This document shows, one piece after another, positions 9,560 through 63,899 of a stretch of 64,000 nucleotides of DNA (within the stretch, counting starts at the first letter, position 1; each line of letters begins with the position of its first letter). The stretch is from Chloroflexota bacterium (GTDB taxonomy: Bacteria > Chloroflexota > UBA11872). Made by a program: the position numbers and the translations under genes. The notes beneath the pieces were generated by a model. The model was not told where the DNA came from. It searched no databases and worked only from the letters and a program-made list of their open reading frames with translations. The stretch is taken from the NCBI GenBank assembly GCA_963667925.1, contig OY764080.1, forward strand, positions 2,379,226 through 2,443,225, read 5' to 3'.

Positions 9560-9610
9560 TGCCTGGCTCCAGCGGCTCTATACAAACACCGCCCAAGCCA
9601 CACGCGACCT

Positions 9611-9642: not shown

Positions 9643-9698
9643 CCCTTTTATGGGAAGGGGCTGCAATCTCGCATTTTGGCGATTTTCCAGGAATACAC

Positions 9699-30677: not shown

Positions 30678-31721
30678 ATGCAGTTTGCCATTGTCGGATA
30701 CGGCAAGTCGGGTCGCGCGTTCGGAAGGCTGATCCAGTCGTTGCCGGGCGCATCGGTCAGTTGCGTGGTCGACTCTGATCGACGTCGCGCCGAAGTGGGC
30801 GCCAGCGACTTGAACGCCGGGACGTGGAGCAACAACGCCCAGGTTGCCTTGCGTTCCGCGAGTGTGGACGCTGTCGTCATATCGACACCGCATGACTGCC
30901 ATGCGCAACTAGCCCGCGACGCGCTGGACCGCGGGCTGCATGTCCTCCTTGAACCGCCTCTGGCCCTACGTCATCCGGACGCGCAGCACGTCTTGGGCTA
31001 TGCACGAGCAGCCCGCACGGCCTTGGCCATTAACTTCTGGATGCGCGCGATTCCCGGCGTGCGTCGTATTCGAGGCCGCATTCCGCGTCCCACATTCGTT
31101 CAAGTCGAATGCGTCGTTCATCCGCTGTCCGAGTCCTGGATGGGGAAAGCTGAGCACGGCGGCGTCATGGGCTTGCTCGGGAGCCACGCATTGGACCTGA
31201 CCAGCCATCTCATGCAGTCGAAGCCACTCCACGCCCAGGCCATGGGGGGGCGTCACACGCGACGGGCGGCTCTTGCCGACACCGTGGCCATTGGCGTCCG
31301 ATTCGCGAACGGAGGACTTGCTCGTGTGCTTGTGGGCGAATTTGGCCGCGCCCGAGCCAGCACCCCGTGGCGCGCACTTGCAACCGACGGCGTAATCACG
31401 GCGACCGCCCGGGGCAGCTTGCCGCTTGGCGAATCTGGATCGAGTCACGATCGAGAAGCCGAATCTGCCTATTCAAATGAGGCGTGGGCGGCGCAGTGCG
31501 AGAGCCTTACGGCGTTCGCAAACGCCGCAGCCGGACGAGGCGAGCCCCTGGCCGGGGTCGACGACGGCGTACGAGCTGTCCACCTCGCCGATGCGGCCTA
31601 TGAAGCCATGGGTTCACGCCGGCGCGTATCAATCACCGCGACATCGCTACCTGATGCCGTCGGACCCGTCTACGGAGATGATTCCGTCGCGCACCGCCGT
31701 GACCACGGCTTCCGTGCGTGA
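30678..31721 (+). CDS. Gfo/Idh/MocA family oxidoreductase
   Basis: Rossmann N-terminus FAIVGYGKSG. 3' end overlaps the convergent response-regulator gene by 75 nt. Confidence 0.75.
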   Translation: MQFAIVGYGKSGRAFGRLIQSLPGASVSCVVDSDRRRAEVGASDLNAGTWSNNAQVALRSASVDAVVISTPHDCHAQLARDALDRGLHVLLEPPLALRHPDAQHVLGYARAARTALAINFWMRAIPGVRRIRGRIPRPTFVQVECVVHPLSESWMGKAEHGGVMGLLGSHALDLTSHLMQSKPLHAQAMGGRHTRRAALADTVAIGVRFANGGLARVLVGEFGRARASTPWRALATDGVITATARGSLPLGESGSSHDREAESAYSNEAWAAQCESLTAFANAAAGRGEPLAGVDDGVRAVHLADAAYEAMGSRRRVSITATSLPDAVGPVYGDDSVAHRRDHGFRA

Positions 31722-38252: not shown

Positions 38253-41200
38253 ATGCGCCGCGGGCGGACATGCCGGTTTCGACGCGGAGCGAACGTTACT
38301 GTGAGTGTGTCTACACACTCAGGCCATCCAGGCAGAGGTCTTGTGCGGGGCGCTGGTGGGCGCGACGTGGCCTGGCGACTAGCCCTGTGGGTACGGGCGG
38401 CACGACGCGTGCGGCGGACGGCGCATCGCTTCCGGTCAGTGGCCGCTGCGGGTTTCTGGCTGGCGCTGTCGACCGCCGCCTGCGGGCCGAGCGAGCCGGA
38501 ACACCTGGGGGCGTCCTCGCACGTTCATCGGCTGTCGAACCCCACCTGGCGGGTCGCGCCGTCCATCGAAGAGCAGATCTTCCGGTCCACGACGATCGTG
38601 CGCGCGACGCTGCAGTCGGCGACGGCGGCGGTCGAGACGCTGCCCAGCGATCCGGGGGTGGCGCCCACCTACCAGGCGGTGCAGGAACTGCGCTTCACGG
38701 TGCACGAGTACCTGAAGGGGAGCGGCTCAACCGAACTGCTGGTGGTGGTGCGCGGCGGCCACGCCTACCAGACGGAGGCCGAGGCCCGCGACTTCTTGGA
38801 CTACCAGGTGCAGGCGCGGGTCACGACCTGGGACGAGCGGCAGGCGGTGCTCTTCCTGGAGGCGCCGTCGTCGCCGTACACCCAGGCCGCCGGCGGCGGC
38901 GAAGCGGCGGGCAGCTCCGCGACCACCTCGCCGGTCGTTTTGCAGTTCACCCGCTCGAACTATGGCCAGCCGCCGTGGGCCTACAGCGTGGACACGCTAC
39001 GACCGGCCTGGCTGCCCGCGGAGAACACGCCGGCTGAGGGGGAGGCGCCGACGGCCTTCATCACGGACGGCGCGCAATCGCCCTCGCCGACGATCACGCT
39101 GGCCGACCTGCGGGGCCGGATCGCGGCGCTGGCGGCGGAGCTGCAGGCGGGGGCAGGCGTCGACGGATTCCGGGAGTGCATTCTCACCAGAATCGGATAT
39201 GAACGGAGTCGCCGCGCCGACCCGTGGACGCCGCCTCTGGAAGCCGCGACCGTGGGCTCCGGGTCGGCGGCCGGGACTGACGTGAGTCGTGCGGCATATA
39301 GATATGACGATCCGCAATACAGTCGCTACTGGCTCAGCGGCTCAGACTCGGGGCGCTTCCATGCCGTAGTCATCGATGCCGATGGCGTGCCGAGCACTGG
39401 ATATGACCATTCGCTGGCTACCACCCGGCCCCTGCCGAACGGCACGTATCACGTGCGTTACAACTGGCAACACCCTTCGGAAATCCCCTGTGGCTTTGCG
39501 CCCGATGATTCCTACGATGATTTCACCGTCACGGTCACGGCGCCTACCGGGACGGTGCACGAGGCGTTCTTCGATCCGGCGGCGCTGGGCAGCGGGGTCG
39601 TCGGGCGGGACGCCGCCCACGGGGTGCTGGCGCCGGCGGCGGTCGGCACGGCCGGCGGCGCCGCGGGCGCCGCAGCCAGCAGCGGGGCCAGCACGACGGC
39701 CGCGACCCTGCGGCGGCTGACCTGGGACGCGGGGCAGTTGCGGCTGGACGTGAGCGGTACGACCCTGGCCGGGCAGCAACTGGAGCTGATCCGCCTGGAC
39801 GGGACCGTGGGGCTGACGCTGCGCGGCGACGCCGCCGTCGCCACGGCCACCGCCGACGGCCACGAACTGCGCTGGCCGGTCTGCGAGCAACCCTGGCAAC
39901 CGGGCGAGCGCCTGATGCTGCGAATCAGTCCCGTCCCGGCGGGCGACTCGCCGGCAGCCCCGGCCTGCCCCGGCGCCCCCGCCCTGCCCACCGTGACGGT
40001 CGACACGACGGCCCCGGCGGCCGGGGCGCCCGCAACCCTGACGGCGGCGGTCCCGAGCGACGCCGGCGCCGCGACCTACCAGTGGCAGCGCGACGTGGGC
40101 GGCGTCTGGACGCCGGTGGACGCGGCCGGCGCGGCCTACGAAGCGCGCGCGCTGACCGCCATGACCGGCAGCTGGCGCGTGCAGGCGCGCTACGCCTCCG
40201 GGGCCGTGGCCCACTCGGCGCCGGTGACGCTGACCTGGCCGGCCGCGGCCACGCCCCCGTGCCGCAACGGGATAACGGTCCCCACGCCCACAACCAATAC
40301 CGGCCTGGTGCAGGACTGCACGGCCTTGCTTGAGGCGCGGGACGCGCTGGCCGGGCCCGGCCGCCTGAACTGGGACGGGTCGCGGGCGCTCAGCGCCTGG
40401 ACCGGGGTGAGCGTGGGCGGCACGCCGCAACGGGTGACGGCGCTGCGGCTGGGCGCGCAGGGCCTGACCGGCCCCGTGCCGGCGGCGCTGGGCGCGCTGA
40501 CCCAGTTGACGGCGCTGGACCTGCGCGGCAACGCCCTGACCGGCGCGCTGCCCACCGCCCTCGGCGCGCTGACGCGGCTGACCGACCTCCACCTGGCCGG
40601 CACCCGGCTGACCGGCTGCCTGCCGGCCACCCTAGCCGGGGTGGCGACCACGGACGCGGCGGCGCAGGGGCTGGCCGCCTGCCAGGCGGGCCCGGCATTC
40701 GGGGCGCCCCGCTACGCGTGGATCGTGCCGGCCGGTCTGCCGCCGGGCGCAGCCATTGGCCAGGTGCAGGCGACCGATCCGAACGGCGGGACCGTGACCT
40801 ACGCGCTCACGGCGGGCAATGACGCCAGCGTGTTCCAACTCGACGCGGCCACCGGCATCCTGTCGGTGGCGGGGACGCTGCCGGCGGGCGGCGCCGGATT
40901 GACGGTGACCGCCACGGACGCCCAGGGGGGCGCCACCCGCGTGCCGCTGGTCGTGGCGGTGGCCGACGACGCCCAGCGATCACCGCCGGTGTTCCCGGCC
41001 GCCGGCTGGACCTTCCACGTGGCCGAGAACGCGGGCGTGGAGACGGTCGTTGGAACAGCTGCGGCCCGCGACCTCGACGGCGGCCCGCTGACTTACGCCC
41101 TCACAGCCGGCAACACGGCGGGGACTCTTGCGCTCGACCCCAGCTCCGGGCTGCTCACCGTCGCCGGGCCGTTGCACCACGCCACCACCCCCCACTACAC

Positions 41201-41279
41201 CCTGACGCTTACGGCCACCGACGCCCATGGCTTAACTGCGACCGCCACCGTGACGATCACCGTGACGGTCGTCGTCTAG
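38253..41279 (+). CDS. Large secreted/surface protein with Ig-like, plant-type LRR (LxxLxLxxNxLTGxLP) and cadherin-like repeat domains
   Basis: Signal-like N-terminus (AAGFWLALSTAACG); LRR block GLTGPVPAALGALTQLTALDLRGNALTGALPTALGALTRLTDLHLAGTRLTGCLP; two cadherin-like repeats (ATDPNGGTVTYALTAGNDASVFQLD.., ARDLDGGPLTYALTAGNTAGTL). Ends TITVTVVV. Confidence 0.7.
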   Translation: MRRGRTCRFRRGANVTVSVSTHSGHPGRGLVRGAGGRDVAWRLALWVRAARRVRRTAHRFRSVAAAGFWLALSTAACGPSEPEHLGASSHVHRLSNPTWRVAPSIEEQIFRSTTIVRATLQSATAAVETLPSDPGVAPTYQAVQELRFTVHEYLKGSGSTELLVVVRGGHAYQTEAEARDFLDYQVQARVTTWDERQAVLFLEAPSSPYTQAAGGGEAAGSSATTSPVVLQFTRSNYGQPPWAYSVDTLRPAWLPAENTPAEGEAPTAFITDGAQSPSPTITLADLRGRIAALAAELQAGAGVDGFRECILTRIGYERSRRADPWTPPLEAATVGSGSAAGTDVSRAAYRYDDPQYSRYWLSGSDSGRFHAVVIDADGVPSTGYDHSLATTRPLPNGTYHVRYNWQHPSEIPCGFAPDDSYDDFTVTVTAPTGTVHEAFFDPAALGSGVVGRDAAHGVLAPAAVGTAGGAAGAAASSGASTTAATLRRLTWDAGQLRLDVSGTTLAGQQLELIRLDGTVGLTLRGDAAVATATADGHELRWPVCEQPWQPGERLMLRISPVPAGDSPAAPACPGAPALPTVTVDTTAPAAGAPATLTAAVPSDAGAATYQWQRDVGGVWTPVDAAGAAYEARALTAMTGSWRVQARYASGAVAHSAPVTLTWPAAATPPCRNGITVPTPTTNTGLVQDCTALLEARDALAGPGRLNWDGSRALSAWTGVSVGGTPQRVTALRLGAQGLTGPVPAALGALTQLTALDLRGNALTGALPTALGALTRLTDLHLAGTRLTGCLPATLAGVATTDAAAQGLAACQAGPAFGAPRYAWIVPAGLPPGAAIGQVQATDPNGGTVTYALTAGNDASVFQLDAATGILSVAGTLPAGGAGLTVTATDAQGGATRVPLVVAVADDAQRSPPVFPAAGWTFHVAENAGVETVVGTAAARDLDGGPLTYALTAGNTAGTLALDPSSGLLTVAGPLHHATTPHYTLTLTATDAHGLTATATVTITVTVVV

Positions 41280-46413: not shown

Positions 46414-47478
46414 CTAAGCCTCAAACTCCTCCAACCGCACCGTCCGCTGCTCATCGCTGCTCCGCACCCCCGCCGCCGCAATCCGAATCGTATTCAGGTT
46501 GTCCCGGCTCGACGTCAACGGCTCACGCCCTTCGTTCAGCGCGGCCATTAGTTCGCCCATGCTCCCGCCGAACGCCTCTGGGAACCACGACCCCTCGATC
46601 GGAAATCGCACCCGACGCTCCGGTTCGTCTCGCTGCGTCACGTCCACCCACTGCGGGCTGCCGGTAATCGAACCCTCCGCGCCGTCGATGTGCCAGAACT
46701 CCGAGTGCCCCGCCTTGCTTTGCACGATGTTGTTGAAGTGATCGATAGCCGTCAGGTCGCCGCTGTCGAAGTGCAGCGCCAGCGTGTGACTCAACGGCGA
46801 AACCGCGTTCTGGCCCTGCATCATCGCCGTCGTCGCGCTCACCGCGTCCGGCGTTCGCCCGCTGAAGTGACGGATCAGGTCCAGGAAATGCACCCCGTGG
46901 TCCACGATGTTGAAGTTCACCACGTCGCGCCACCACTTGTCCGGCTGGTCCTGGTACCCCCGCCGCACGTGCGCAACGCTGAACAACGGGCCACAGATCC
47001 TCGACTCGATCAGCAGCTTGATCGCCGCGTGCGCCGGCGCCCACCGCGCTTGCTGGTTGATCATCAGCGTCACCCCGGCGTCCCGCGCCGAGTTCGACAA
47101 CCACGCCGCGTCCTCCCATGTCATGGCGAAGGGCTTCTGCGACAGGATCGGCTTCTCCGCCGCCAGTAGCGCCGGCCACAGCTCCAGCCGCGCATGCGGA
47201 TGCACCGCCAGGTCGATCACCTCAACCTGATCGTTCTCCAGCACCACCCGCGGATCGGTCCCAGCCGCCTCAATCCCCCATCGCGCCTGCGTCGATTCCA
47301 CCGCCGCCGAATCAATATCGCTGCACGCCACCACCTCGTACCCAAAGTCCCGGTACGCCGGCAAGTGAGCCCCGTTCGCAATCCCACCACACCCGATCAA
47401 CCCAATCCGGTAGTGCCGCCCGCGCGGCGGCTTCGGCCGGTAGTTCCCTGGAGTCAGTCGCAATTCGTCCAGCTTCAT
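46414..47478 (-). CDS. Gfo/Idh/MocA family oxidoreductase
   Basis: YRIGLIGCGGIANGAHLPAY Rossmann N-terminus. ATG start MKLDEL at 47476-47478; the ORF-track extension to 47622 is rejected. Confidence 0.8.
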   Translation of the reverse strand: MKLDELRLTPGNYRPKPPRGRHYRIGLIGCGGIANGAHLPAYRDFGYEVVACSDIDSAAVESTQARWGIEAAGTDPRVVLENDQVEVIDLAVHPHARLELWPALLAAEKPILSQKPFAMTWEDAAWLSNSARDAGVTLMINQQARWAPAHAAIKLLIESRICGPLFSVAHVRRGYQDQPDKWWRDVVNFNIVDHGVHFLDLIRHFSGRTPDAVSATTAMMQGQNAVSPLSHTLALHFDSGDLTAIDHFNNIVQSKAGHSEFWHIDGAEGSITGSPQWVDVTQRDEPERRVRFPIEGSWFPEAFGGSMGELMAALNEGREPLTSSRDNLNTIRIAAAGVRSSDEQRTVRLEEFEA

Positions 47479-49492
47479 GCCCACTACCTCAGCGGCAATC
47501 CACGAGAGAATGCCATGCCTCCACACTTCATCATCGACTCCCACCAACCTTTCTGATTCAAACCCGGCATCATTGACCCCAACGACCGCCCAACTCGCAA
47601 CCCGAGGTGACGGCTTGATCACGAACCCACTGGATCGACGCGCACCCGACGCCGGATATCAGGGTTCGCACCGCGCGTACGATTCCGTCGTGTTGCCCGA
47701 CGTCCTCATTCCGGCGCGCGACGGCGTGCAACTGGCTGCCGATATCTACCTGCCGACCCTCAACGGCCGCCAGGTCGACGGGCAGTTTCCGGCGCTCATC
47801 GAGCGCACCCCGTACCTCAAGGACTCCGGCCGCTACGCACGCAAGGCGCACTGGTACGCACGTCGCGGCTACGCCGTCGTCATCAACGACGTCCGTGGCC
47901 GCGGTCGCTCCGGCGGTGAGTGGTATCCCTTTGCCAGAGAAGCCCCCGACGGCTACGACGCCGTGGAGTGGATCGCGGTCCAGCCCTGGTGCAACGGCCG
48001 CGTCGGCACCATGGGCAACTCCTACGCCGGGTCCGACCAGAGCGCCCTGGCCACCCTCAACCCGCCGCACCTGCGCGCCCAGGTCGTCGGCCAGGGCGCC
48101 AGCAACTACCTGATCTCGTCCATGCGCCAGGGCGGCGCCCTGGAACAGCGCTTCATCAGCTATGCCTACCGCATGGCCGTCACCAGCCAGGAAGCCGGCG
48201 CCGACCCCGACCTTGAGCGCGTCCTGCGCGCCGAGTTCGAACGCGTGCCCGAGATCCTGGGCCCACCCCTGCGCTTCCGCCCAGGCCGCACCGCACTCCG
48301 CTTGCTTCCGCTCTACGAACAATGGGCCTGGGACATCCTCACCCAAGGCGGCAGTGGGCCCTACTGGTCCCAGCGCGGCTACACCATCGATGAGTATTGG
48401 CACGAGCACGCCGACGTCCCGGTCCTCTTCCAAAGCGGCTGGTACGACACCTACCCCCGCAGCGCCATCGCCAACTTCCACGCCCTCCGCCGCCTCAGGT
48501 CCAGTCCCATGTCGTTGCTCCTGGGCCACTGGCGCCACGGCGAGCCCACGACCGAGGAGACCTCCGCCGGCGACGTGGACTTAGGCCTCGAATCCGCCCT
48601 CCCCCTCTACGACGATCTGCGCTTGCGCTTCTTCGATCACCACCTCAAGGACCTGGAAACCGGTCTCGACCGCGAGCCGCCTGTCCGCTACTTTGTCATG
48701 GGCGGACAACTCGGCCGACCGCCCGCCGACCTCGAAGGGCGCCTCTGGCACGGCGGCCGCTGGGAATCGGCCGACAAATGGCCGCCGCCCGCCGCTGCCG
48801 AAACCGCCCTCTTCCTGCAGACCGACGGCTCGCTCACCAGCGAAACACCCAACAAGCCGACCGGCCCAACCCGCTTCACCTACGACCCGCGCAATCCGGT
48901 TCCCACCACCGGCGGTTCCATCAGCGCCGCCGAGGAAGCCCTGCCATCCGGCGGCTTCGATCAGCGCGGCCAGCCCGGCCGCTTCCACGGCCACCACGAC
49001 ACCCTCTCCCTGGCCAGCCGCCCCGACGTCCTCAGCTTCGAGACTGCTCCGTTCGACGCGTCGTTCGAGATCGCCGGCCCCGTCGAGGTCGTGCTTTTCG
49101 CCTCCAGCAGCGCCATCGACACCGACTTCACCGCCAAGCTGCTCGACGTATATCCGCATAGCCACGCCACGCCCGGCGGGTACGAGCTCAACCTGGCCGA
49201 CAGCATCCTCCGCGCCCGCTACCGCAACGGCTACGACGGCGAAGAGTTCCTGCAGCCCGAGGAGATCTACGAGTTCCGCATCGTCCTCTACCCCACCGCC
49301 AACCGCTTCGCCCCCGGCCACCGGCTTCGCGTGGACATCTCCTCGTCCAACTATCCCCGCTTCGACGCCAACCCCAACACCGGGGAGCCGCTTGGCCAAT
49401 CCCGGCGCGTCGAGATGGCCCACCAGGCCGTCTACCACGACCCCGACAACCCCAGCCGCCTGCTCGTCCACGTCCGGCCTGTCGCGGAATGA
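47477..49492 (+). CDS. CocE/NonD family alpha/beta hydrolase (S15 X-Pro dipeptidyl-peptidase-like)
   Basis: VLIPARDGVQLAADIYLP..ALIERTPY..GNSYAG and a C-terminal beta-sandwich. Start uncertain (ATG 47477 or 47510). Confidence 0.8.
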   Translation: MPTTSAAIHERMPCLHTSSSTPTNLSDSNPASLTPTTAQLATRGDGLITNPLDRRAPDAGYQGSHRAYDSVVLPDVLIPARDGVQLAADIYLPTLNGRQVDGQFPALIERTPYLKDSGRYARKAHWYARRGYAVVINDVRGRGRSGGEWYPFAREAPDGYDAVEWIAVQPWCNGRVGTMGNSYAGSDQSALATLNPPHLRAQVVGQGASNYLISSMRQGGALEQRFISYAYRMAVTSQEAGADPDLERVLRAEFERVPEILGPPLRFRPGRTALRLLPLYEQWAWDILTQGGSGPYWSQRGYTIDEYWHEHADVPVLFQSGWYDTYPRSAIANFHALRRLRSSPMSLLLGHWRHGEPTTEETSAGDVDLGLESALPLYDDLRLRFFDHHLKDLETGLDREPPVRYFVMGGQLGRPPADLEGRLWHGGRWESADKWPPPAAAETALFLQTDGSLTSETPNKPTGPTRFTYDPRNPVPTTGGSISAAEEALPSGGFDQRGQPGRFHGHHDTLSLASRPDVLSFETAPFDASFEIAGPVEVVLFASSSAIDTDFTAKLLDVYPHSHATPGGYELNLADSILRARYRNGYDGEEFLQPEEIYEFRIVLYPTANRFAPGHRLRVDISSSNYPRFDANPNTGEPLGQSRRVEMAHQAVYHDPDNPSRLLVHVRPVAE

Positions 49493-52644: not shown

Positions 52645-52860
52645 CCGAATCAGCGTGGAAGCGATTTAGCGGCGCAACGGTCGCAGGATCCCGCAGTCCG
52701 GGTTCGAATGTGCGGGGCAGCCTCCGCCTTTCTCCTCTGGAAGCAATGAGGTGCGCCGTGATTACAGGGGTGGGAGCGAAGGCCGTAACTCCTCGGTTGG
52801 CCTGATAACGGCAAGGGCCGGGGATAATGCCGGATCGAACAAAGCTGGAAGCTTGGGGAA

Positions 52861-54564: not shown

Positions 54565-54820
54565 TGAGGGAAGCGGAGTGGGAAGTTAGAGAAGGGGGAT
54601 AGGGAAGTAGGAGTAAGCGAGCGTAGGTGCGGGGGTGTGGTTCGACGCGGGCCTCCGTAAGACTCCGGCCCGGCTCACCACGAACGGTTGGGTGAGCCGG
54701 CAATGGTCGGGGATGGGCGAGAAGTGCAGGGTGAGTTGGGGATGTTGGTTGCTGCTGGGTCCCAGCTGAAGACGCCGGGATGACGGGGACTCGGGACCGA
54801 CGGTTGGGGTGATTAATGCC

Positions 54821-54868: not shown

Positions 54869-56371
54869 CTAGGCCGGAATCGGTGTCCAGTCGTCGTAGG
54901 AGTTGAAGATGGCGTTGGTGTCCGAGGCCATCTTGCGAGCAGCTTGCTCGGGGCCAACCTCGTCGACCCAAAGCTTGGACGCCTCCGTCCGGTACGCACC
55001 GATGAACTCGTCCCAGTACGGGAAGTAGCCAGGAGTGCGTGGTTCGGGCGTGGTGGCGTAAGTCTTGAGCCAGTGCATGCCCTCGGGCGGGGCAGCCAGC
55101 GCATCCGCTTGATCGGCGACTTCCTTGAAGACCGGGAAGTGGCCGCGATCGATCCCGACGCGAGCCTGGTATTCCGGACCCGCGAGGTAGGTGACCAACT
55201 GGACGGTCTGCTCGAGGTTGCCCAGCCGCTCGGCGGCGATGGTGACGATGTGCGGCTGGTCGTTCCAGCCATGCCGCACGTCGCCGGTGCTGGGCGCCGC
55301 GTACATCGGAGCGACGGACCAGGTGAAGCGGTCCTTGATGCGCGGGATGCCGAAGCCGGTGCTGTAGACACGGCCACCGGGCCAGAGGCCGACCTGGCCG
55401 GCGGAGAATGGGTCACCGAACTCGCCGGAGACGCGCTGGCGAATCTCAGGCGGGAAGGCGACGTTCTCGGTGTACATGGTGCCGTGGACCCAGCTCAGCG
55501 CTTCGATCGCACCCGACGAATCGAATTGGGACACGCCGTTCTGGTCGTACCAGAATTCAACGCCGTTGGACCACAGCATGGGTCCCCAGCCGAACTGGTC
55601 GCTGGTGGGCGCCCAGATGCCGAACTGGTCGTTGTCGGCGTCAGTGAGCGCGCGCGAGGCCTCCATGGCGTCGTCCCAGGTCCAGCCCTCGGCGGGCTGA
55701 TCCACGCCGTTGGACTCGAACAGGTCGACGTTGTAGACGAGGCCGTTCATGCCGCCCTGGAACGGGAGGCCGTGCAGGCGACCGTTGGCCTGGTAGAGGG
55801 CGCCTTCCCACGGCAGCCAGCCGGTGGGGAGCACCCAGTAGTCGTCCAGCGAAAAGCCCAGCTTGCCCACCTGGTCGGTGATGTCCGGGAAGAAGCCGGC
55901 CGAGTAGTGGGCCTGGTAGAGGTTGCCCTCGAACAGGATGGCCTCAGCCATGCTGCCAGCGGCGAACTGCAGGTTGAGGGCGTCGAAGTAATCGCCACCG
56001 ATGACGTCGATCTTGACGGGAATGTTGGGGAATTGGCGCGAGAACTGCTCCATTCCCCACTTCATGGCGTTGCCGCGCGGGCCGGACGTGTGGTCGGTGG
56101 CGAAACGAACGCTGACGGGTCCCGCAGCAGGCTCGGCAGCATCGACCGTGACAATCTCTTCGCGGGTGACTGGAACTTCCTTCTCGACGATCCTCTCGAC
56201 TTGCTTGACCTGGGTGACGACCTTTTCGACTACGATGGTTTCACCTTCGCCGCAGGCCGCCAGGACCGCAACACCGGCCGCGCCAAGAGCGCCCGCGCTC
56301 CCGGCTCGTAGCATTTCTCGACGTGTCAGATTCCGCATATCCCCTCCTGCGTCCCGAAGGACCCGCGGCAC
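54869..56371 (-). CDS. ABC transporter substrate-binding lipoprotein (family 1, sugar type)
   Basis: Signal/lipobox AVLAACGEGE and the SBP_bac_1 fold. Confidence 0.85.
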   Translation of the reverse strand: MPRVLRDAGGDMRNLTRREMLRAGSAGALGAAGVAVLAACGEGETIVVEKVVTQVKQVERIVEKEVPVTREEIVTVDAAEPAAGPVSVRFATDHTSGPRGNAMKWGMEQFSRQFPNIPVKIDVIGGDYFDALNLQFAAGSMAEAILFEGNLYQAHYSAGFFPDITDQVGKLGFSLDDYWVLPTGWLPWEGALYQANGRLHGLPFQGGMNGLVYNVDLFESNGVDQPAEGWTWDDAMEASRALTDADNDQFGIWAPTSDQFGWGPMLWSNGVEFWYDQNGVSQFDSSGAIEALSWVHGTMYTENVAFPPEIRQRVSGEFGDPFSAGQVGLWPGGRVYSTGFGIPRIKDRFTWSVAPMYAAPSTGDVRHGWNDQPHIVTIAAERLGNLEQTVQLVTYLAGPEYQARVGIDRGHFPVFKEVADQADALAAPPEGMHWLKTYATTPEPRTPGYFPYWDEFIGAYRTEASKLWVDEVGPEQAARKMASDTNAIFNSYDDWTPIPA

Positions 56372-56635
56372 TTGGCTAGAACCAGCCCGATGTTAGCGCG
56401 TACGCGCACATACGGAAAACCTAAGAGCGAGCATAGCCCAAACCGAACGGGTCGCCGACCGAAATCCAGAGTTCTCCGGGATATCGGCCGGGGAATGGTC
56501 GACCGGCAGCAGGCCATTAGCGCGACAGTGACGCCGGTGCGTCGCGGCGCTGGCAATCACGACGCCTCCTGCGGGAGCCGTAGCGGCGTCAGCGTTCGGC
56601 CAGGCGCCCGGTCGGCGCTTCCGGCTCGACGTTGA

Positions 56636-56868: not shown

Positions 56869-57720
56869 TCAGGCGCCGGCGGGCCGAAAAACGGCGTTGG
56901 GATCAACGACGCAGAGGATTCCGCTCGGGAGCGTGAGGGTGACGCCTCGACTGAGCGAGCTGACGCCGGAGCCCTGCTGGAGGAGGTAGTCGGGATCACG
57001 CTTGACTCGCGGGCCAGCGAATTCGCGCATGGGCTGGGCAGGTATGAGGCGGGCGATAGCGTTGCCGACGGGAGCCACGGAGGTAATGCCGGCATCTTCC
57101 ATGGCCTGGCCGACACGGTTGAAATCGTAGCCGGGGTAGCCGACGTCACGTAGGTAGACGGTGTTTTCAAAGGGTACGAGGCGTCCATTGGGCCGTCGGA
57201 GACGGCGGCGAAGGGTGTCGACTTTGCGGTGGTGGAGCCGGAAGGCCACTTCGAGGACGTGGCAGGCAGTAAAGGTCTGATAGGTGACACCGAGCAGAAG
57301 GAATCGTCCGTTGAGCTTGAAGATTGTCCCCAGCGGGTCGTCGGCAGCCCAGGCCGTGGGGCCGCCGGCATTGACGATTGACTCGGCGTGGGACCCGATG
57401 GCGCTGAGGCTGTGGGTGAGGTGACGGCTGCGACGGTTACCGGCGCGACGGCGGATTTCATCGGCTATGGCTCCCATGTCGGACGGGGTGTTGAGCGGAT
57501 CGAAGACGAAGCTGGGATCCAGGGCGGTCTCGTAGTTGAAGGAAGGGCCGACGAGGGTGCCCGACGGACCGAGGACATCGAGGAGGGCGTCGACGACGGT
57601 CGGAGCGCCGCCCACGACGTGGCCGAGGCTGCGGAGTGAACTGTGGATCATGAGAACATCGCCCGCCTGCAAGCCAAGGCTGCGCAGGTCGGCGGCGAGG
57701 CGGTCGCGGGTGAGGACCAT
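56869..57720 (-). CDS. Aminoglycoside N(3)-acetyltransferase family protein (AAC(3)/Antibiotic_NAT fold)
   Basis: MVLTRDRLAADLRSLGLQAGDVLMIHSSLRSLGHVVGGAPTVVDALLDVLGPSGTLVGPSFNY is a typical AAC(3) N-terminus. ATG at 57718-57720; the ORF track's 430-aa extension overlaps the divergent gene and is rejected. Confidence 0.75.
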   Translation of the reverse strand: MVLTRDRLAADLRSLGLQAGDVLMIHSSLRSLGHVVGGAPTVVDALLDVLGPSGTLVGPSFNYETALDPSFVFDPLNTPSDMGAIADEIRRRAGNRRSRHLTHSLSAIGSHAESIVNAGGPTAWAADDPLGTIFKLNGRFLLLGVTYQTFTACHVLEVAFRLHHRKVDTLRRRLRRPNGRLVPFENTVYLRDVGYPGYDFNRVGQAMEDAGITSVAPVGNAIARLIPAQPMREFAGPRVKRDPDYLLQQGSGVSSLSRGVTLTLPSGILCVVDPNAVFRPAGA

Positions 57721-57781
57721 GTCTGCTAAGTAGATACTGAGGGCCGTGCGAGGATACGCCGCAAGCGTCGCGGAGGGTGAA

Positions 57782-58798
57782 ATGACCAATCCGAGCCCCG
57801 TTCGATGCGCCGTGATCGGGACAAACAACATTGCCGCCCAGCACATTCCGGTGTTGCAGGCGCTGCCGGAGGCGCAGGTGGCGGCGCTGTGCGATATCGA
57901 CCCGGAGGCCCTTGAGGAGACGTCGCGGCAGTTTGGCGTTGAGCGGACGTTTACGAGCGTGGACGACCTGCAGGCGTGGGGTGACTTCGACGCGGTGTAT
58001 GTGCTGGTGAGCGTGCTGGCGGTAGCGGATGTGGCGGAACGGTTTGTCCGGGCGGGGATTCCGACGTTTCTGGAGAAGCCGCCGGGGTTGTATTCGTCTG
58101 ATACGGAGCGTCTGGCGTTGGCGGTACGGGAGACTGGGACGACGGCAATGGTGGGGCTCAATCGTCGCTTCTATACGTGCCTGCAGGCAGGTCGGGAGGC
58201 GCTGCTGAATACGGGCGACATTGTCTCGGTGACGGTGCATGCCGACGAAGTCGCCGCGACTCACTGGGAAGGTTCGAAGTTTCCGCCGGAAGTGGCGGCG
58301 CGTTGGACCTACGCGAACAGCATTCATGCCCTGGACCTGCTGCGGTACCTGGGCGGGGATGTTGCAAAGGTGACCTCAGCAGTGAGACAACGACGACTGC
58401 CGAAGCCGGATAGCTTCAGCGCGCTGCTGGAGTACGAGTCGGGCGCGGTGGGAAGGGCCATTGCGGATCACTTTGGGCCGAAGGGGACGGGGCACTGGTA
58501 TGAGGCTCGGACGGCGAGCGCGGTGTTGACCTCGGGCGTTGGGGCGACGGCCAGTGATCGCTTGAGCTCGTGCACGCTGGAACGGCAGGGTCACAAGCCG
58601 GTTCGGTTTGGCCTGACCGGGCTCGACCGGCGGCTGAAGCCGGGGTTTCCGGGCGAGTCGCGGGCCTTCTTGCAGGCGGTTCAGGCTGGCAAGCCTGTGT
58701 CGTTTCCGGCACCAACCCTGGATGACGCCGTGCGTACGATGAAGATGATCGACGAGATCACGGGGGCCGAGGAGTGGGCGCCCAAGCCGGCGAGTTGA
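57782..58798 (+). CDS. Gfo/Idh/MocA family oxidoreductase
   Basis: VRCAVIGTNNIAAQHIPVL Rossmann N-terminus. Start MTNPSP at 57782; the ORF track starts at 57746. Confidence 0.8.
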   Translation: MTNPSPVRCAVIGTNNIAAQHIPVLQALPEAQVAALCDIDPEALEETSRQFGVERTFTSVDDLQAWGDFDAVYVLVSVLAVADVAERFVRAGIPTFLEKPPGLYSSDTERLALAVRETGTTAMVGLNRRFYTCLQAGREALLNTGDIVSVTVHADEVAATHWEGSKFPPEVAARWTYANSIHALDLLRYLGGDVAKVTSAVRQRRLPKPDSFSALLEYESGAVGRAIADHFGPKGTGHWYEARTASAVLTSGVGATASDRLSSCTLERQGHKPVRFGLTGLDRRLKPGFPGESRAFLQAVQAGKPVSFPAPTLDDAVRTMKMIDEITGAEEWAPKPAS

Positions 58799-58820
58799 GA
58801 CGGGGCGCGGCACGAGGCGG

Positions 58821-59915
58821 ATGGGTCGGATGAGCGAAGTTTTCGACGTGCTCGTGGTCGGCGCGGGGCCGGGGGGCACGCAAGCGGCGGTGAGCGCGGC
58901 GCACCAGATGCGGCACGTGCTGCTGCTGGACGCCAGCAAGGTGAGCCGCCGGCGAGGGCGGGCGTACTGGTCGAAGACGGTGAAGATCGAGGACGCGCCG
59001 GTGTTCGCGGGGATAACCGGCATTGAGTTTGCGAAGGCGTTGCGGGAATGGACCGAGGGGCAGCCGGAACGGGCGATCAAGCGCGGCGGCGAGGAACGAA
59101 TGGCTGGGATTCGGCGGGCCGACGGGTTTGCCATGGACCTGGAGCGGTTGGACGACGACACGTTTCGGCTGACGTACGCGACGGAGCCGCTCTCGCGCGA
59201 CGGCACCGTGGGTGCGACGACGACGGCGCTGGGCCGGACGGTGGTGGTGGCCAGCGGTTTCGAGGACGGCTGGCCGGACATCGAGATCAATGACGCGGCG
59301 GACCGGATGTACCGGAAGTATCAGCTGGTGTATCGCTATGCCGGTAACAGCCGAGGCTGGCACCTGTGTATCCGCTGCGACGGTCACCTGCACGTGGACG
59401 AGCGCGTGGCGATTGTGGGGACGGGCGATTACATCTTTGAGGTGGTGCAGGGGGCGCAGGATTTCACGGATCGAATCACGGTGCTGACGAATGGGCGGCC
59501 GCATGGCATGTCGCCGCCGGTGCTGGCGGCGCTGCGCGAGCGGGGGGCGGAGCTGGACGAAGGTCGAATTGAGGCCCACATCGGGCAGGGTCTGAACCTG
59601 CTGGGGTTCCGGATGGCGGACGGTCGGGAGCTGTTCTTCGACGGATTCTTCGTGGACGAGGGGCTCAAGGCGAACGACGAGTTTCTGCACCGGTTCGACG
59701 TGGCGCACGCTGAGAACGGTTTGCTGCGGTGCAGCGACGACCATGAGGTGCTGGATTCGTCGGGCGAACCGATTCCCGGAATGTGGGCGGCGGGGGACAT
59801 CGTGGCCGGGGAACGGAACCTGATCGCGAGCGCGTTCGCCAGCGGGCAAGACGCGGGGCTGGAGGCTTCGGACAGTCTGAGGCGGTGGGCAGCGCCGGCG
59901 GCGCAGGGGGACTGA
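58821..59915 (+). CDS. FAD-dependent pyridine-nucleotide oxidoreductase (thioredoxin-reductase-like fold, no CxxC)
   Basis: VLVVGAGPGG, second Rossmann VAIVGTGDY, C-terminal GMWAAGDIV. Confidence 0.65.
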   Translation: MGRMSEVFDVLVVGAGPGGTQAAVSAAHQMRHVLLLDASKVSRRRGRAYWSKTVKIEDAPVFAGITGIEFAKALREWTEGQPERAIKRGGEERMAGIRRADGFAMDLERLDDDTFRLTYATEPLSRDGTVGATTTALGRTVVVASGFEDGWPDIEINDAADRMYRKYQLVYRYAGNSRGWHLCIRCDGHLHVDERVAIVGTGDYIFEVVQGAQDFTDRITVLTNGRPHGMSPPVLAALRERGAELDEGRIEAHIGQGLNLLGFRMADGRELFFDGFFVDEGLKANDEFLHRFDVAHAENGLLRCSDDHEVLDSSGEPIPGMWAAGDIVAGERNLIASAFASGQDAGLEASDSLRRWAAPAAQGD

Positions 59916-60014
59916 GTGACTTGCACACCGGCCCGGCACAATGCAAACTACTTTGCTATACAAACTTTCAGGCTAGGCATTTGGTGTTGACGTGGCTGTG
60001 ACCCTGTCTGGACG

Positions 60015-60983
60015 GTGCTCGTGAGTACCACGGACAACGGAATGTTGTTGCGTGCCGGTGGGGTGATGCACCGGTATGGGGACCTGACGGCAGTGAACGA
60101 CGTCTCGCTGGCGGTACGGCGGGGCGAGGTGTTCGGGTTGCTGGGTCCGAACGGGGCGGGCAAGTCGACGCTGATCGGGATTCTCTGCGGCATGTTTGCG
60201 CCCACGGCCGGAAATGTGCACCTGGGCGACGTGCCGATTACGCCGGGAGCGCGGAGCGCCAAGCGACGGATTGGCGTGGTGCCGCAGGACATTGCGCTGT
60301 ACGAGAAGCTGAGCGGCCGGCAGAACCTGCGGTTTTTTGGGCGGGTCTACGGCCTGGGCGGCCGCCGCCTGCGCGAGCGGGTGGAGGCGGTGCTGGACGT
60401 CGTGGGGCTGAGCGATCGGGGGAACGATCAGGCCGGGACGTATTCGGGAGGCATGCAGCGGCGGCTGAACCTGGCGGCGGGGCTGCTGCACGAGCCGGAA
60501 CTCTTGGTCCTTGACGAGCCGACGGTGGGGGTGGACCCGCAGAGCCGGAATCACATCTTCGACAACGTGGAGCGGCTGAATCGCGATCAGGGCGTGACGA
60601 TCGTCTATACGACGCACTACATGGAAGAGGCGGAACGGCTGTGCGACCGGGTGGCGATCATCGACCACGGCAAGATCGTGGCGCTGGATACGCCACGGGC
60701 GCTGATCGAGTCGCTGGGCGGCGGGGTAATCCAGCTCGGAATCGATCCGGAGCAGCGAGCGCAGGTGACGAACTCCCTGGCGTCGCTGGCGTCGGTGCAG
60801 GCCGTGGGGCCGGGGCCGGACGAGCGGTCGCTGAACATCGAAGCAGCCAGCGCGCGGCACGCGCTGGTGGACGTGATGCTGGCGATGAACACGGCGGCGC
60901 TGGAAGTGGAGACCGTGCGAATCCTGGAGCCGAACCTGGAGAGCGTATTCCTGCGCTTTACGGGTCGCCGGCTGAGGGACTGA
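60015..60983 (+). CDS. ABC-2 type exporter ATP-binding protein (DrrA-like)
   Basis: Walker [10 protein letters not shown], signature YSGGMQRRL, Walker B LLVLDEPT. Confidence 0.9.
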
Positions 60984-60986
60984 GCG

Positions 60987-62249
60987 ATGCGGGTAACGCT
61001 GGCCTTCACGATCAAGGAGTTCCTGCTGCTGCTGCGGGATCCGGGCGGCCTGTTTGTGCTGTTCCTGATGCCGGTGATGTTCATGGTGGTCTTCAGCCTG
61101 GCGCTGGGCGGGCTGTTTGAGGAAGGCGCGGCTGAAGGTTCGGCCAGGGCGCTGGAGGTACCGGTGGCGACGGGCGGCGCGGGCGAGGTGGCCGAACGGG
61201 TGGTGGAGCAACTGGACGCAACGCAAGGACTGGCCATTGTTCGCGAGCAGGACGGTGAGGCGCTAACGGCGGATCAGGTGGCTCAGTTGGTGGCGGACGG
61301 CGAGTACCCGGTGGGGGTCGTTTTCCCCGAAGGACTAACGACACTCCTGGAAGATCCGCGCATCCTCCGGGGCGAGCAGGTACAGCCGCTGGAGGTAGAC
61401 GTCATTGTGGATCCGGCAACCACAGGGCAGGTGACGGGTCCGCTGGAGGGCGCGTTGAGCGCGGTTCTACAACAGGTCGTGGGCCAGCGGCTGGGCGAGG
61501 CGGGGGCGGCGGCCTGGTTCGAGCAGGTAGCCGCTGGTCTGCCGGCCGAGGTTCGCGAACAGCTGGCGGCGTCGATGCAGCAGGGCGGTGAGGGAGAGGG
61601 CGCCCTGCCCGTGACGACGCGGCGGCGAGTTCCGCCGGGGGTCGAGCGCGAGCAGTTCCCGGACCAATTCCAGCAGAACGCGGCCGGTTACACGGTTATG
61701 GGGGTGTTTTTCATCGCCACGGTGATGATCGAGTCGATCTTCCGGGAGCGGCGGAGCGGGGCGATGCGACGCCTGCGGGCCGCGCCGGTGGGTCGGGCGC
61801 CGATCGTGATCAGCAAGCTGGCGCCGTTCTACGTGGTGAACCTGATCCAGATCGTGATCATGTTTGCGATCGCGCGGCTGGCGTTTGGGCTGGACCTGGG
61901 GTTTGTGCCGGCGCTGGTGGTGGTATCGGCGGCGCTGGCGCTGGTGGCCACGGGGCTGGGAATAGCGTTGGCCGGAGTCTCGCGCTCGGAGACGCAGGGG
62001 ACGGGCCTGGCGGTGATCGTGGTGCTGACGACGTCGGCGCTGGGCGGGGTGATGGTGCCGCGCTTCATCATGCCCGAGGCGATGCAGCAGATCGGCAACA
62101 TCACACCGCAAGCCTGGGCGATCCAGGGCTATCAGGACGTGCTGGTGCGCGGCCAGGGCGTCGGCGGCGTGTGGCTGGAAGCGGGCGTGCTGCTGATCTT
62201 TGCGGCAGTGTTCACAGCGATCGGAATCTGGCGGTTTCGGTTCGACTGA
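60987..62249 (+). CDS. ABC-2 type exporter permease (DrrB/YhgE-like, large extracytoplasmic loop)
   Basis: N-terminal TM, long periplasmic loop, then an ABC-2 membrane domain with ~5 TM segments. Confidence 0.85.
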   Translation: MRVTLAFTIKEFLLLLRDPGGLFVLFLMPVMFMVVFSLALGGLFEEGAAEGSARALEVPVATGGAGEVAERVVEQLDATQGLAIVREQDGEALTADQVAQLVADGEYPVGVVFPEGLTTLLEDPRILRGEQVQPLEVDVIVDPATTGQVTGPLEGALSAVLQQVVGQRLGEAGAAAWFEQVAAGLPAEVREQLAASMQQGGEGEGALPVTTRRRVPPGVEREQFPDQFQQNAAGYTVMGVFFIATVMIESIFRERRSGAMRRLRAAPVGRAPIVISKLAPFYVVNLIQIVIMFAIARLAFGLDLGFVPALVVVSAALALVATGLGIALAGVSRSETQGTGLAVIVVLTTSALGGVMVPRFIMPEAMQQIGNITPQAWAIQGYQDVLVRGQGVGGVWLEAGVLLIFAAVFTAIGIWRFRFD

Positions 62250-62505: not shown

Positions 62506-62598
62506 ATGACCCATCAAAGAGCATGCTTATTAGTAATGTATCATGATACTTACACTCAATCATACACGACCACAATAGAAGATCTTAGGCACTGCTAA
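62506..62598 (+). CDS. Candidate 30-codon leader/small ORF (MTHQRACLLVMYHDTYTQSYTTTIEDLRHC) with strong SD, rare TTA-TTA codons, and TAATG coupling to the downstream gene
   Basis: SD AAAAGGAG 5 nt upstream of the ATG at 62506. Stop TAA (62596-62598) overlaps the ATG at 62598. Codon usage is extremely AT-rich for this genome. Confidence 0.4.
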   Translation: MTHQRACLLVMYHDTYTQSYTTTIEDLRHC

Positions 62599-63899
62599 TG
62601 CTACGCAAAAGGATAGGCAATCAGGCGCATCGGAATGGTGGTGTGCAGTTGGGGGAGGCTCGGGCTATGACGGAGACGTTGAGAATGCGCGAACAGCGAC
62701 GGTCAACAGTTTGGGAACGAGTCCGGCTTGGGCTGGCGGCCGTTGCCGCGGCCAGCCTGACGATTGCGGGGCCAGTGACCGCGTTGCGGGCGCTGGACTG
62801 TGTGGGCATACCCATCAGCGACGGCTGCCTGTTTGCCAACACCGGCGGCGACACGCCTGATCCGAACGACGGGTATGCCGTGACCAACGCCGATAGCGTC
62901 CCGATGTGGGACTTCGTACGCGAGGCTGAGGCTGAGGCCATTGGATACCCGATCAGTCAGCGCTGGCTGGACGGACCGTTCACGCTGCAGGCATTCCAGA
63001 AGGTGATTCTGCAGTGGGACCCGGCCAACGCACGGATGAACTACTACAACACGCTGGACGTGTTGGCCAACCGCTACCCGCACATCGAGCTGCCCAACGT
63101 GCCGGCGCACCAGGTGCTGGCGGCGGACGTAGGCGCGGACTTCGAGACGGTCAAGCAGAACCACCTCGCGATCCTGGATGAGAACCCCGGAATCAAGGCG
63201 CGGTTCCTTGGCGAACCGGACTGGCTCAACCTGTACGGGCTGCCGATTCGGTACGAGGAACGGGAAGTCGATGGCAATCCGCAGGGACTGCAACTGCTGC
63301 GCGCGCAGCGGGCCGTGTTCGCGGTCTGGAACGTGCCAGCGCCCGGGACGACCCCTGGCGAGGTAGTGCTTCAGAACCTTCCGGACAAGGTAAAGCAACT
63401 GAGCAACGTGATTGTTCCCGACGCGACCGAGGCGCCCCTGACGCCCGGGCAGCTGAACGCATTTGAGCCGCAGCAGATACACCGACGCTCCGATGAGGAC
63501 GAGGGCAGCGGCGACGACGAGCGTGCGGTCGACGACCCGCCCGGGACGGACAACGACGGCTTTGACACGACCGCCAATACCGACCACGACGGCTTCGATA
63601 CCACCGCCAATACCGATCACGATGGTTTGGACACGACGGCCAACACCGACAATGACGGAGTCGACACCACCGCGAACACCGATCACGATGGTTTCGACAC
63701 CACCGCCAATACCGACCACGACGGCTTTGATACCACGGCCAACACTGACTACGACGGATTCGACACGACGGCCAACACCGACCACGACGGTTTCGACACC
63801 ACCGCGAATACCGACCATGACGGCTTCGACACCACAGGCAATGAGAACGAGGACACCGACGACACTGCTGAGGACGACAGCGAAGACGACAGCGATTAG
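62598..63899 (+). CDS. Secreted protein with C-terminal acidic tandem repeats (9 x DHDGFDTTANT) and Asp/Glu-rich tail
   Basis: Signal-peptide-like LGLAAVAAASLTIAGPVTALRA; N-terminal domain of unknown function; 11-aa repeats with an EF-hand/DxDxDG-like N-x-D-x-D-G core. An alternative start is the ATG at 62667. Confidence 0.6.
   Translation: MLRKRIGNQAHRNGGVQLGEARAMTETLRMREQRRSTVWERVRLGLAAVAAASLTIAGPVTALRALDCVGIPISDGCLFANTGGDTPDPNDGYAVTNADSVPMWDFVREAEAEAIGYPISQRWLDGPFTLQAFQKVILQWDPANARMNYYNTLDVLANRYPHIELPNVPAHQVLAADVGADFETVKQNHLAILDENPGIKARFLGEPDWLNLYGLPIRYEEREVDGNPQGLQLLRAQRAVFAVWNVPAPGTTPGEVVLQNLPDKVKQLSNVIVPDATEAPLTPGQLNAFEPQQIHRRSDEDEGSGDDERAVDDPPGTDNDGFDTTANTDHDGFDTTANTDHDGLDTTANTDNDGVDTTANTDHDGFDTTANTDHDGFDTTANTDYDGFDTTANTDHDGFDTTANTDHDGFDTTGNENEDTDDTAEDDSEDDSD
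63547..63843. repeat. Tandem 33-bp coding repeat x9 (ACCGACCACGACGGCTTCGACACCACCGCCAAT consensus)
   Basis: Read directly from the sequence; copies differ at a few synonymous or conservative positions. Confidence 0.9.

Follow-up and report, generated by a model that had tools for sequence, protein, structure and literature searches.

Does a gene neighbourhood that joins an N-acetyltransferase of the aminoglycoside-resistance fold to oxidoreductases and an exporter represent an antibiotic island, or does it belong to the ordinary metabolism of its host? This question is raised by a stretch of 64,000 nucleotides from a Chloroflexota bacterium (UBA11872; assembly GCA_963667925.1, contig OY764080.1, positions 2,379,226-2,443,225), which we call the window throughout. 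A preliminary description of this DNA had proposed that the five genes at 56869-62249 form a small-molecule modification and efflux island, comprising an acetyltransferase like the aminoglycoside 3-N-acetyltransferases (AAC(3)), a Gfo/Idh/MocA dehydrogenase, an FAD oxidoreductase and the two subunits of an ATP-binding cassette (ABC) exporter of the DrrAB kind. Our study confirmed the five domain identities with strong Pfam and NCBIfam support at the coordinates given in Table 1, as well as the divergent orientation of the acetyltransferase gene relative to the oxidoreductase run. The interpretation that we favour is a different one, which we consider probable while leaving considerable room for others: the locus is a vertically inherited, modular neighbourhood for sugar or amine metabolism on the core chromosome, and not an island for antibiotic resistance or biosynthesis.

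Genes were called by a frame analysis based on guanine-plus-cytosine (GC) content at third codon positions (the window has a GC of ~65%), together with Pfam and NCBIfam scans. The Pfam scans covered most predicted genes of the 64 kb, all except a few short open reading frames (ORFs), and several products had no family; statements below about genes scanned refer to this set. Nearly all homologues of the acetyltransferase come from uncultured Chloroflexota, and the source lineage is probably an uncultured, sponge-associated member of this phylum. The isolate names of its relatives (COS2_bin, RHO3_bin, SB0662_bin, Langseth_MAG) resemble those of sponge-metagenome bins, which we presume them to be, a literature search having given no confirmation.

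The acetyltransferase matches PF02522 with 153 bits (E=1e-44) over profile positions 1-227 of 232, and it carries the motif T151-A-C-H154-V-L-E157, whose Thr, His and Glu are invariant in 14 orthologues and align with those of AAC(3)-IVa, -IId and -VIa, a Leu replacing the Ala that precedes the Glu. The catalytic motif of the family has been defined as T-x-Phi-H-Phi-A-E, with a His/Glu dyad and a Thr (PMC8956665; the structural paper on FrbF is among the sources cited for it). Since T151, H154 and E157 are intact, the protein is probably catalytically competent and an active acyltransferase. A mechanically delimited ORF of 430 residues for the same gene was rejected as an upstream over-extension, because the orthologues have 283 residues; it also overlaps the Gfo/Idh/MocA gene.

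An intact dyad on this fold is what an enzyme that inactivates or tailors an aminoglycoside would also display, and the genome annotations indeed call relatives of this protein 'aminoglycoside 3-N-acetyltransferase' or 'AAC(3) family N-acetyltransferase'. The comparison with curated resistance families argues otherwise. None of the five NCBIfam AAC(3) models comes near its cut-off: 122.5 bits against a cut-off of 270 for AAC_3, 80.5 against 480 for AAC_3_II, 115.3 against 420 for AAC_3_IV, 60.6 against 675 for AAC_3_VIa and 74.6 against 560 for AAC_3_VIII. A search of 72,556 plasmids returned no homologue with at least 60% identity; in that search the identity to AAC(3)-IVa, -IId, -IIe, -IIg and -VIa was 30-32%, and in the multiple alignment it was 28-29%. 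The preliminary description had suggested that phylogeny be used to separate resistance enzymes from housekeeping homologues, and in our neighbour-joining tree the acetyltransferase groups with non-resistance paralogues, within a Chloroflexota clade of orthologues and paralogues that stands apart from AAC(3)-II, -IV and -VI; the references in this tree were AAC(3)-IVa, -IId and -VIa only, FrbF, YokD and BA2930 having been left out.

The best match among solved structures is FrbF (3SMA), with 109.6 bits when the single sequence is used and 130.8 bits with the orthologue profile. The entries ranked after it are those of Bacillus anthracis BA2930. It is important to note that FrbF, YokD and BA2930 have no aminoglycoside activity (PMC8956665). 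The protein is also basic, with an isoelectric point (pI) of 9.55 (median of the orthologue group 9.06, n=47), compared with 5.4-6.1 for AAC(3)-IVa, -IId and -VIa. By this crude proxy, its basic character speaks against an acceptor with many positive charges such as an aminoglycoside; a neutral or anionic one is more probable.

Genomes of this lineage contain multiple copies of the acetyltransferase family, some of them in tandem, with four members on a single 3.6-Mb contig. The paralogous genes adjoin genes for Gfo/Idh/MocA, AP_endonuc_2, sulfatase, GH32/43 and BNR proteins. On the basis of these comparisons we classify the acetyltransferase as a non-resistance relative that lies outside the AAC(3) resistance clades and belongs to a Chloroflexota-specific, multi-copy paralogue family. 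An exact-sequence lookup of the protein gave no match, and its genomic context was therefore taken from homologues. One of these, a relative with 63% identity (L003), has a 90-residue AAC(3)-fold fragment and an HNH endonuclease gene at 8961-9924, between the dehydrogenase gene and the complete acetyltransferase gene, which points to a duplication or insertion that took place locally.

The divergently transcribed partner is the Gfo/Idh/MocA dehydrogenase (hereafter Gfo), in which Pfam recognises both the N- and the C-terminal domain of the family. Its start at ATG 57782 is conserved and has a GAGGG ribosome-binding site ahead of it. Its best matches in the PDB are inositol 2-dehydrogenases (58 bits for 4HKT), and it scores 67 bits against the NCBIfam model IolG, which has a cut-off of 355. 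Wherever upstream sequence was visible, Gfo was divergent to the acetyltransferase gene (21/21 loci), and it is the shared anchor of the neighbourhood. Aligning the 61-bp spacer of 16 relatives brings out a pair of conserved boxes, CGTATCCTCGCA and CAGTATCTA as read on the acetyltransferase strand, and the spacer may well be a control region. The same alignment shows no Shine-Dalgarno sequence ahead of the acetyltransferase ATG, so that its transcript may be leaderless. Two further Gfo/Idh/MocA genes lie in the 64 kb, at 30678-31721 (+) and 46414-47622 (-), besides the one at 57782-58798 (+). Several more were seen in relatives near paralogous AAC(3)-fold genes, and both families look strongly expanded in the lineage.

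Synteny was examined in 22 relevant loci obtained from a scan of GTDB, together with three from exact-protein lookups that duplicated L009, L017 and L023, the genes being mapped with tblastn. As far as the sequence reaches, 18 loci with 72-86% identity in the acetyltransferase have the order ABC permease, ATPase, thioredoxin-reductase-like (TrxR-like) flavoprotein and Gfo, followed divergently by the acetyltransferase, a conserved small ORF that we call sm55, and a solute-binding protein; the exception is L018, from which the ABC pair is absent. The full order is also kept in L023 (63%). In total, ~19 related metagenome-assembled genomes have this order conserved. Most of the full-order loci belong to close relatives, with 76-95% protein identity. 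More distant genomes have only parts of it. Thus, in L022 and L024 (55-58% acetyltransferase identity, GC 0.55) the divergent pair of Gfo and acetyltransferase survives alone between different flanks, which in L024 include adjoining EamA and OCD_Mu_crystall genes. Another Chloroflexota contig, L031, has orthologues of Gfo (62%) and of the TrxR-like flavoprotein (67%) next to each other; the acetyltransferase, sm55, the binding protein, the halogenase and the ABC-2 pair are all missing from it, and its backbone (Pup-ligase, OCD, EamA, PhyH) is the one found around L003. The preliminary description had also named synteny as a check, and the outcome is divided: the order is conserved among close relatives but breaks into independent modules in distant genomes. 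For this reason we conclude that the neighbourhood is a variable spot in a conserved backbone, where modules come and go.

Three pairs within it are tight, namely Gfo with the acetyltransferase, sm55 with the binding protein, and the ATPase with the permease; the TrxR-like flavoprotein, the halogenase and the Ala-rich protein are loose neighbours that vary between genomes. The halogenase is an optional neighbour, adjacent in 13/19 loci, and the Ala-rich protein stands beside it in five loci only (L003/L023, L004, L014, L020 and L021). In six loci (L001, at 6171-7775 +, L008, L011, L015, L016 and L020), an opposite-strand ORF of 534 residues that is missing from the window splits the ATPase gene from the TrxR-like gene. 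This ORF has no Pfam hit and looks, from its translation, like a glycosidase or a beta-propeller.

The term island does not suit this locus. The GC across 56-62 kb is 0.645-0.675, within the 0.61-0.73 of the window; no tRNA genes were found in the window by ARAGORN, and no integrase or transposase domains occur among the window genes scanned. The rest of the window is core chromosome, with genes for EF-G, IF-2, NusA, TruB, gamma-glutamyltranspeptidase, enolase and a Lon-like protease. Given the uniform GC, the lack of tRNA and mobility genes and the core flanks, a horizontally acquired island was rejected. Despite this lack of island features, there is a sharp step in identity relative to one relative, L017 (OZ242271.1): at the nucleotide level the window is 94-99% identical to it over ~58.1-63.6 kb and 74-82% at 56.6-57.6 kb, and its left part is more similar to L004 and L020. 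The breakpoint lies at ~57600-58130, in the divergent spacer and at Gfo's 5' end; recombination may have joined the two parts there, or the assembly may be chimeric.

The carbohydrate flavour of the neighbourhood comes from three observations: the sugar-binding relatives of the solute-binding protein, the inositol and sugar dehydrogenase matches of Gfo, and the inserted ORF that, by eye, is glycosidase-like. We infer from here on the class of substrate, the direction of the pathway and any coupling between the modules. The dehydrogenase/acetyltransferase pair, which is the old core of the neighbourhood, would handle, in the cytoplasm, a metabolite that carries an amine and resembles a sugar or a cyclitol. 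Gfo would carry out the NAD(P)-dependent oxidation of a hydroxyl, the acetyltransferase would perform an acetyl-CoA-dependent N-acetylation through its His/Glu dyad, and a related sugar may be picked up extracellularly by the binding lipoprotein. The pair could be considered part of a large carbohydrate-scavenging repertoire of this lineage.

Several observations weigh against a role in sugar or amine metabolism and must be considered together. The likeness of Gfo to characterised inositol and sugar dehydrogenases is weak (58-67 bits). The pI of a whole protein is a crude stand-in for the charge of its active-site cleft, which in the aminoglycoside-binding enzymes is negative. No permease genes are found near the binding protein, and a role for it in uptake is putative. 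Plain sugar metabolism does not explain a halogenase with a peptide-binding-like domain or a conserved secreted peptide, both described below. The block from the Ala-rich protein to the permease is intact in L003/L023, at 54-79% protein identity and between different outer flanks, which would also fit a functionally coherent cluster. Finally, environmental Antibiotic_NAT enzymes can act on aminoglycosides (PMC8956665), and, judging by sequence, the one studied here may do so as well.

A first alternative to a sugar or amine neighbourhood is that the genes are independent of one another, their adjacency reflecting nothing more than the shared ancestry of close genomes. The close relationship of most full-order loci, the separability of the modules in distant genomes and the occurrence of the TrxR-like family, which is broad, in unrelated contexts are all in agreement with it. 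It accounts less well for the persistence of the divergent Gfo/acetyltransferase pair down to 55% identity, in genomes with a GC of 0.55 and other flanks, for the adjacency of sm55 and the binding protein in 19/19 loci, or for the conserved boxes of the divergent spacer. We regard independence of the genes as unlikely, while acknowledging that it deserves to be taken seriously. The features on which this and the following alternatives draw are listed in Table 1.

Table 1. Features of the neighbourhood in order of position within the window (aa, amino acids; bp, base pairs).
Feature	Length	Coordinates	Strand	Family match or basis
Ala-rich protein, upstream of halogenase	564 aa	50950..52644	+	no Pfam/NCBIfam hit
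Flavin-dependent halogenase, CndH/CmlS type	567 aa	52861..54564	+	Pfam Trp_halogenase, E=7e-37
Orphan family-1 (CUT1-like) solute-binding lipoprotein, Tat/lipobox signal	489 aa	54869..56338	-	Pfam SBP_bac_1, SBP_bac_8
sm55, conserved ORF with Tat-type RRR motif and lipobox (L-P-A-C)	55 aa	56636..56803	-	sequence, conservation
AAC(3)-fold (Antibiotic_NAT) N-acetyltransferase	283 aa	56869..57720	-	Pfam PF02522
Divergent spacer between acetyltransferase and Gfo	61 bp	57721..57781	.	putative control region
Gfo/Idh/MocA NAD(P)-dependent dehydrogenase	338 aa	57782..58798	+	Pfam PF01408, PF02894, PF22725
TrxR-like flavoprotein, C-I-R-C redox motif	364 aa	58821..59915	+	Pfam Pyr_redox_2
ABC transporter ATPase, DrrA/NodI-like subfamily	322 aa	60015..60983	+	Pfam ABC_tran
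ABC-2 permease, PF12698 type	420 aa	60987..62249	+	Pfam ABC2_membrane_3, 125 bits

Special attention was given to sm55, which the preliminary description had passed over, which is easily overlooked owing to its small size and which may be a lead in its own right. Its sequence is MRRDQAKDRARSPRLTRRRVLAAGVIAMAAFSLLPACGDEEVESGKFKLRSGASW, and its gene is preceded by a GAGGAG ribosome-binding site. The product has a twin-arginine translocation (Tat)-type RRR motif, a hydrophobic core and a lipobox, a signal of the same kind as that of the adjoining binding protein, and its predicted mature form is the 19-residue lipopeptide C-GDEEVES-GKFKLRSGASW. It is present in 19/19 distinct loci with at least 62% acetyltransferase identity, always flanked by the AAC(3)-fold gene on one side and the gene of the binding protein on the other. 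The identical C-terminus GKFKLRSGASW is encoded by 17 distinct DNA versions, and the last 12 codons of these contain 10 variable sites, of which 10/10 are third-position and 10/10 synonymous; changes confined in this way provide clear evidence of purifying selection on the peptide. The variants in L003 (GKFHLRSGRSWGS) and L004 (GKFKLRSHINW) keep the pattern GKF[KH]LRS-x-x-[SN]-W. A library of 1.84 billion proteins yielded matches to sm55 in three small-protein representative clusters only, and a metagenome scan with its codon pattern yielded one contig with the ORF layout of the window and no new contexts. The small ORFs beside a paralogous acetyltransferase gene (L027) are unrelated to it. 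We think it unlikely that sm55 is a leader peptide that regulates the binding-protein gene or acts by arrest: the 300-nucleotide spacer is not conserved, and translation of a chain of only 55 residues would end before its signal peptide had emerged from the ribosome. The binding-protein gene itself starts at ATG 56338 with an AGGAGG ribosome-binding site; relatives have 488-489 residues, and the solved ones all bind sugars or oligosaccharides (e.g., 5F7V and 6RJY).

The halogenase had been placed just upstream of the acetyltransferase in the preliminary description. It is a genuine member of its family, but the two genes are 2.3 kb apart with two others between them, the binding-protein gene (54869-56338), towards which the halogenase is convergent, and sm55. 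Its N-terminal 400 residues match 8ZOP with 280 bits, CndH (3E1T) with 224 and CmlS (3I3L) with 198, and its translation contains GGGPAG, GWLWHIP and FVDPILASG, which correspond to the motifs GxGxxG, WxWxIP and FxDPxxSxG. Its K73 (FTRKYGATY) aligns with RKYGG of 8ZOP. K73 may be the counterpart of the catalytic Lys of CndH near the halide/HOX site.

Beyond this catalytic part, the halogenase has an extra C-terminal domain (~residues 460-567) with no counterpart in the 412-residue chain of 8ZOP. The only Pfam hit in this region is PqqD (PF05402), at 15.1 bits and E=0.029, under the cut-off of 23.4 bits. Recognition elements of the PqqD kind have a winged fold with a three-stranded sheet and three helices. 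In an AlphaFold2 model of the C-terminal part, four predicted strands span 66-107, the three helices that follow take up 110-159, and a short strand at 163-166 comes last; the predicted local distance difference test (pLDDT) score there is ~75-90. One of five models was confident, and the alignment behind them was shallow, the homologue search having returned eight fragmentary proteins. Foldseek ranked PqqD 5SXY first in the PDB for this model, with a probability of 1.0, an E-value of 3e-3 and a target TM-score of 0.65. This is weak evidence that the domain is PqqD-like.

These two components suggest a second alternative, a modified-lipopeptide cluster. The product of sm55 would be a ribosomal precursor, and the halogenase would dock through its PqqD-like domain and halogenate the C-terminal Trp; the acetyltransferase, Gfo and the TrxR-like protein would add further modifications, and the peptide would leave the cell by Tat and lipidation or by ABC-2 export, with the pump possibly conferring immunity. 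Support for it comes from the reality of the sm55 gene and the strong purifying selection on its C-terminal pattern, and from the fact that sm55 is the sole conserved small ORF in the block, where no alternative conserved precursor ORFs were found around the halogenase and where the intergenic regions 52647-52860, 54569-54814 and ~56420-56635 do not align between relatives. The PqqD matches and the conservation of the whole block in L003/L023 are in line with it as well, and there is a precedent in SrpI, a leader-guided halogenase of marine source that brominates a C-terminal Trp (PMC10286304). Against this, the halogenase is not beside sm55 in 6/19 loci, among them the complete chromosome region L017, and L031 has the TrxR-like protein and Gfo side by side with no sm55. 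At its N-terminus, sm55 has an ordinary Tat/lipobox signal and no known leader of a ribosomally made and post-translationally modified peptide (RiPP). The halogenase is CndH/CmlS-like, with no entry named SrpI among its 21 PDB matches, the evidence for the PqqD-like domain is weak, as stated above, and there is no flavin reductase, protease or other RiPP enzyme nearby. We consider such a cluster improbable. Somewhat more doubtful still is its most specific form, a new ribosomal natural product of sponge-symbiont Chloroflexota in which a Tat-exported, lipid-anchored, 19-residue sm55 peptide has its Trp halogenated in the cytoplasm by the neighbouring enzyme. The halogenase may recognise the peptide, possibly its Tat signal, through the PqqD-like domain, and the other enzymes and the pump may serve in tailoring, export and immunity. 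In any case, the fusion of a PqqD-like domain to a CndH/CmlS-type halogenase is a possible lead, since halogenated natural products are known from the habitat of these bacteria. The Ala-rich protein encoded upstream of it could have a helical-repeat fold, which is a guess from its sequence.

The exporter had been described as DrrAB-like, which fits loosely, and for its ATPase half only. The ATPase scores 300.4 bits against the TIGR01188 drrA model, just short of its cut-off of 312.45, with NodI models scoring next. The permease scores 54 bits against TIGR01247 drrB, whose cut-off is 223, and its hydropathy segments, one N-terminal membrane helix (18-45) and a hydrophobic C-terminal membrane block (233-419), leave a loop of ~185 residues (46-232) that is predicted to be extracytoplasmic; by its score and this layout, it is not of the six-helix DrrB type. 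The permease start codon lies 3 nucleotides past the ATPase stop, and the two genes are a translationally coupled unit. We regard the pair as a generic exporter whose link to the neighbouring enzymes is conjectural. Downstream of the permease, at 62598-63899 (+), is a gene for a 433-residue protein without a family match, which has a hydrophobic stretch near its N-terminus and, in its C-terminal part, ~10 tandem DTTANTDHDGF units followed by an acidic tail; it is 76-95% conserved in relatives. A 407-residue, kinase-like protein with an APH domain (PF01636) follows this repeat protein in L002/L017 (2694-3917), at a position whose counterpart falls outside the window. Since the PF01636 family is broad, this neighbour is not evidence for aminoglycoside metabolism.

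The FAD oxidoreductase of the preliminary description is a flavoprotein, as proposed, and is more precisely a TrxR-like protein whose NADPH-site motifs appear degenerate. Its best PDB matches are Gll2934 (5N0J) and Slr0600 (5JRI), with DepH (4NTE) lower in the list. The first two are NADPH-independent cyanobacterial TrxR-like flavoproteins (DDOR and DTR, respectively), and DepH is a dithiol oxidase. Homologues are widespread at 55-68% identity, including in Poribacteria; one of them is fused to glutaredoxin, and the distant ones in other phyla have unrelated gene contexts. We also thought of a mycothiol-like pathway for a low-molecular-weight thiol, in which inositol dehydrogenation, N-acetylation and disulfide reduction would come together, but make no claim for it here.

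A third alternative, an aminoglycoside-like or sugar-derived antibiotic unit in which the acetyltransferase inactivates or tailors the compound, the oxidoreductases modify it and a DrrAB-like pump exports it, has on its side the intact dyad, the near-DrrA ATPase, a gene order kept in ~19 relatives, the true halogenase within 2.3 kb and the APH-domain protein after the cluster in the closest relative on that side, and we regard it as very unlikely because the acetyltransferase is basic, multi-copy, closest to FrbF and outside the curated AAC(3) families, the permease does not belong to the DrrB type, the enzymes occur in some genomes apart from the ABC pair, and no 2-deoxy-scyllo-inosose synthase, aminotransferase, glycosyltransferase, polyketide synthase or non-ribosomal peptide synthetase is found among the scanned genes of the 64 kb. 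In this last respect the preliminary description was correct, since it had seen no core biosynthetic genes either. Its proposal of aminoglycoside or sugar-antibiotic tailoring or self-resistance fails on the family models, the identities, the tree, the FrbF match and the pI, and what stands of its general claim, small-molecule-modifying enzymes next to an exporter, does so partly and in its weakest form.

The remainder of the window adds a few observations. A scan of the whole window with Rfam at gathering thresholds gave no match, and a promoter and terminator scan gave 0 promoters and fewer terminator-like sites than expected from shuffled sequence. At 38253-41279 (+), where GC is raised to 0.71-0.73, a 1008-residue protein with a third-position GC of 0.88 has cadherin, bacterial immunoglobulin-like and leucine-rich-repeat domains. 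Eukaryote-like repeat proteins have been reported for sponge symbionts, and this protein is of that sort.

It is important to consider that annotations such as those given to the relatives of this acetyltransferase, when taken at face value, would inflate the counts of resistance genes in sponge and marine metagenomes. As a basic, multi-copy, lineage-specific branch that is nearest to FrbF and lies among sugar-metabolism genes, it should not be counted as a resistance gene without an assay.

A comparison with known systems places the components of the neighbourhood as follows. SrpI shows that a leader can steer a halogenase to a C-terminal Trp (PMC10286304); any action of the window's halogenase on a peptide would be hypothetical. 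The C-x-x-C-D-G segment of the TrxR-like protein aligns with those of Gll2934, Slr0600 and DepH (HVCLICDGY versus HLCIRCDGH), at scores of 32-55 bits. The exporter resembles DrrAB, which provides daunorubicin self-resistance, in being a two-gene ABC-2 system with a DrrA/NodI-like ATPase and a closely coupled permease gene; it differs in its PF12698 permease with the long loop, in the absence of a drug biosynthesis cluster and in its separability from the enzymes. FrbF, which serves Streptomyces rubellomurinus as N-acetyltransferase in making the phosphonate FR-900098, shares the Antibiotic_NAT fold with the Chloroflexota acetyltransferase; it is a biosynthetic enzyme, the alignment between the two is distant and in two segments, and no phosphonate genes occur among the window genes scanned. 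With AAC(3)-II, -IV and -VI the acetyltransferase has in common the fold and the catalytic Thr, His and Glu; unlike them, it has no close plasmid homologue, is basic and chromosomal, and forms a separate clade.

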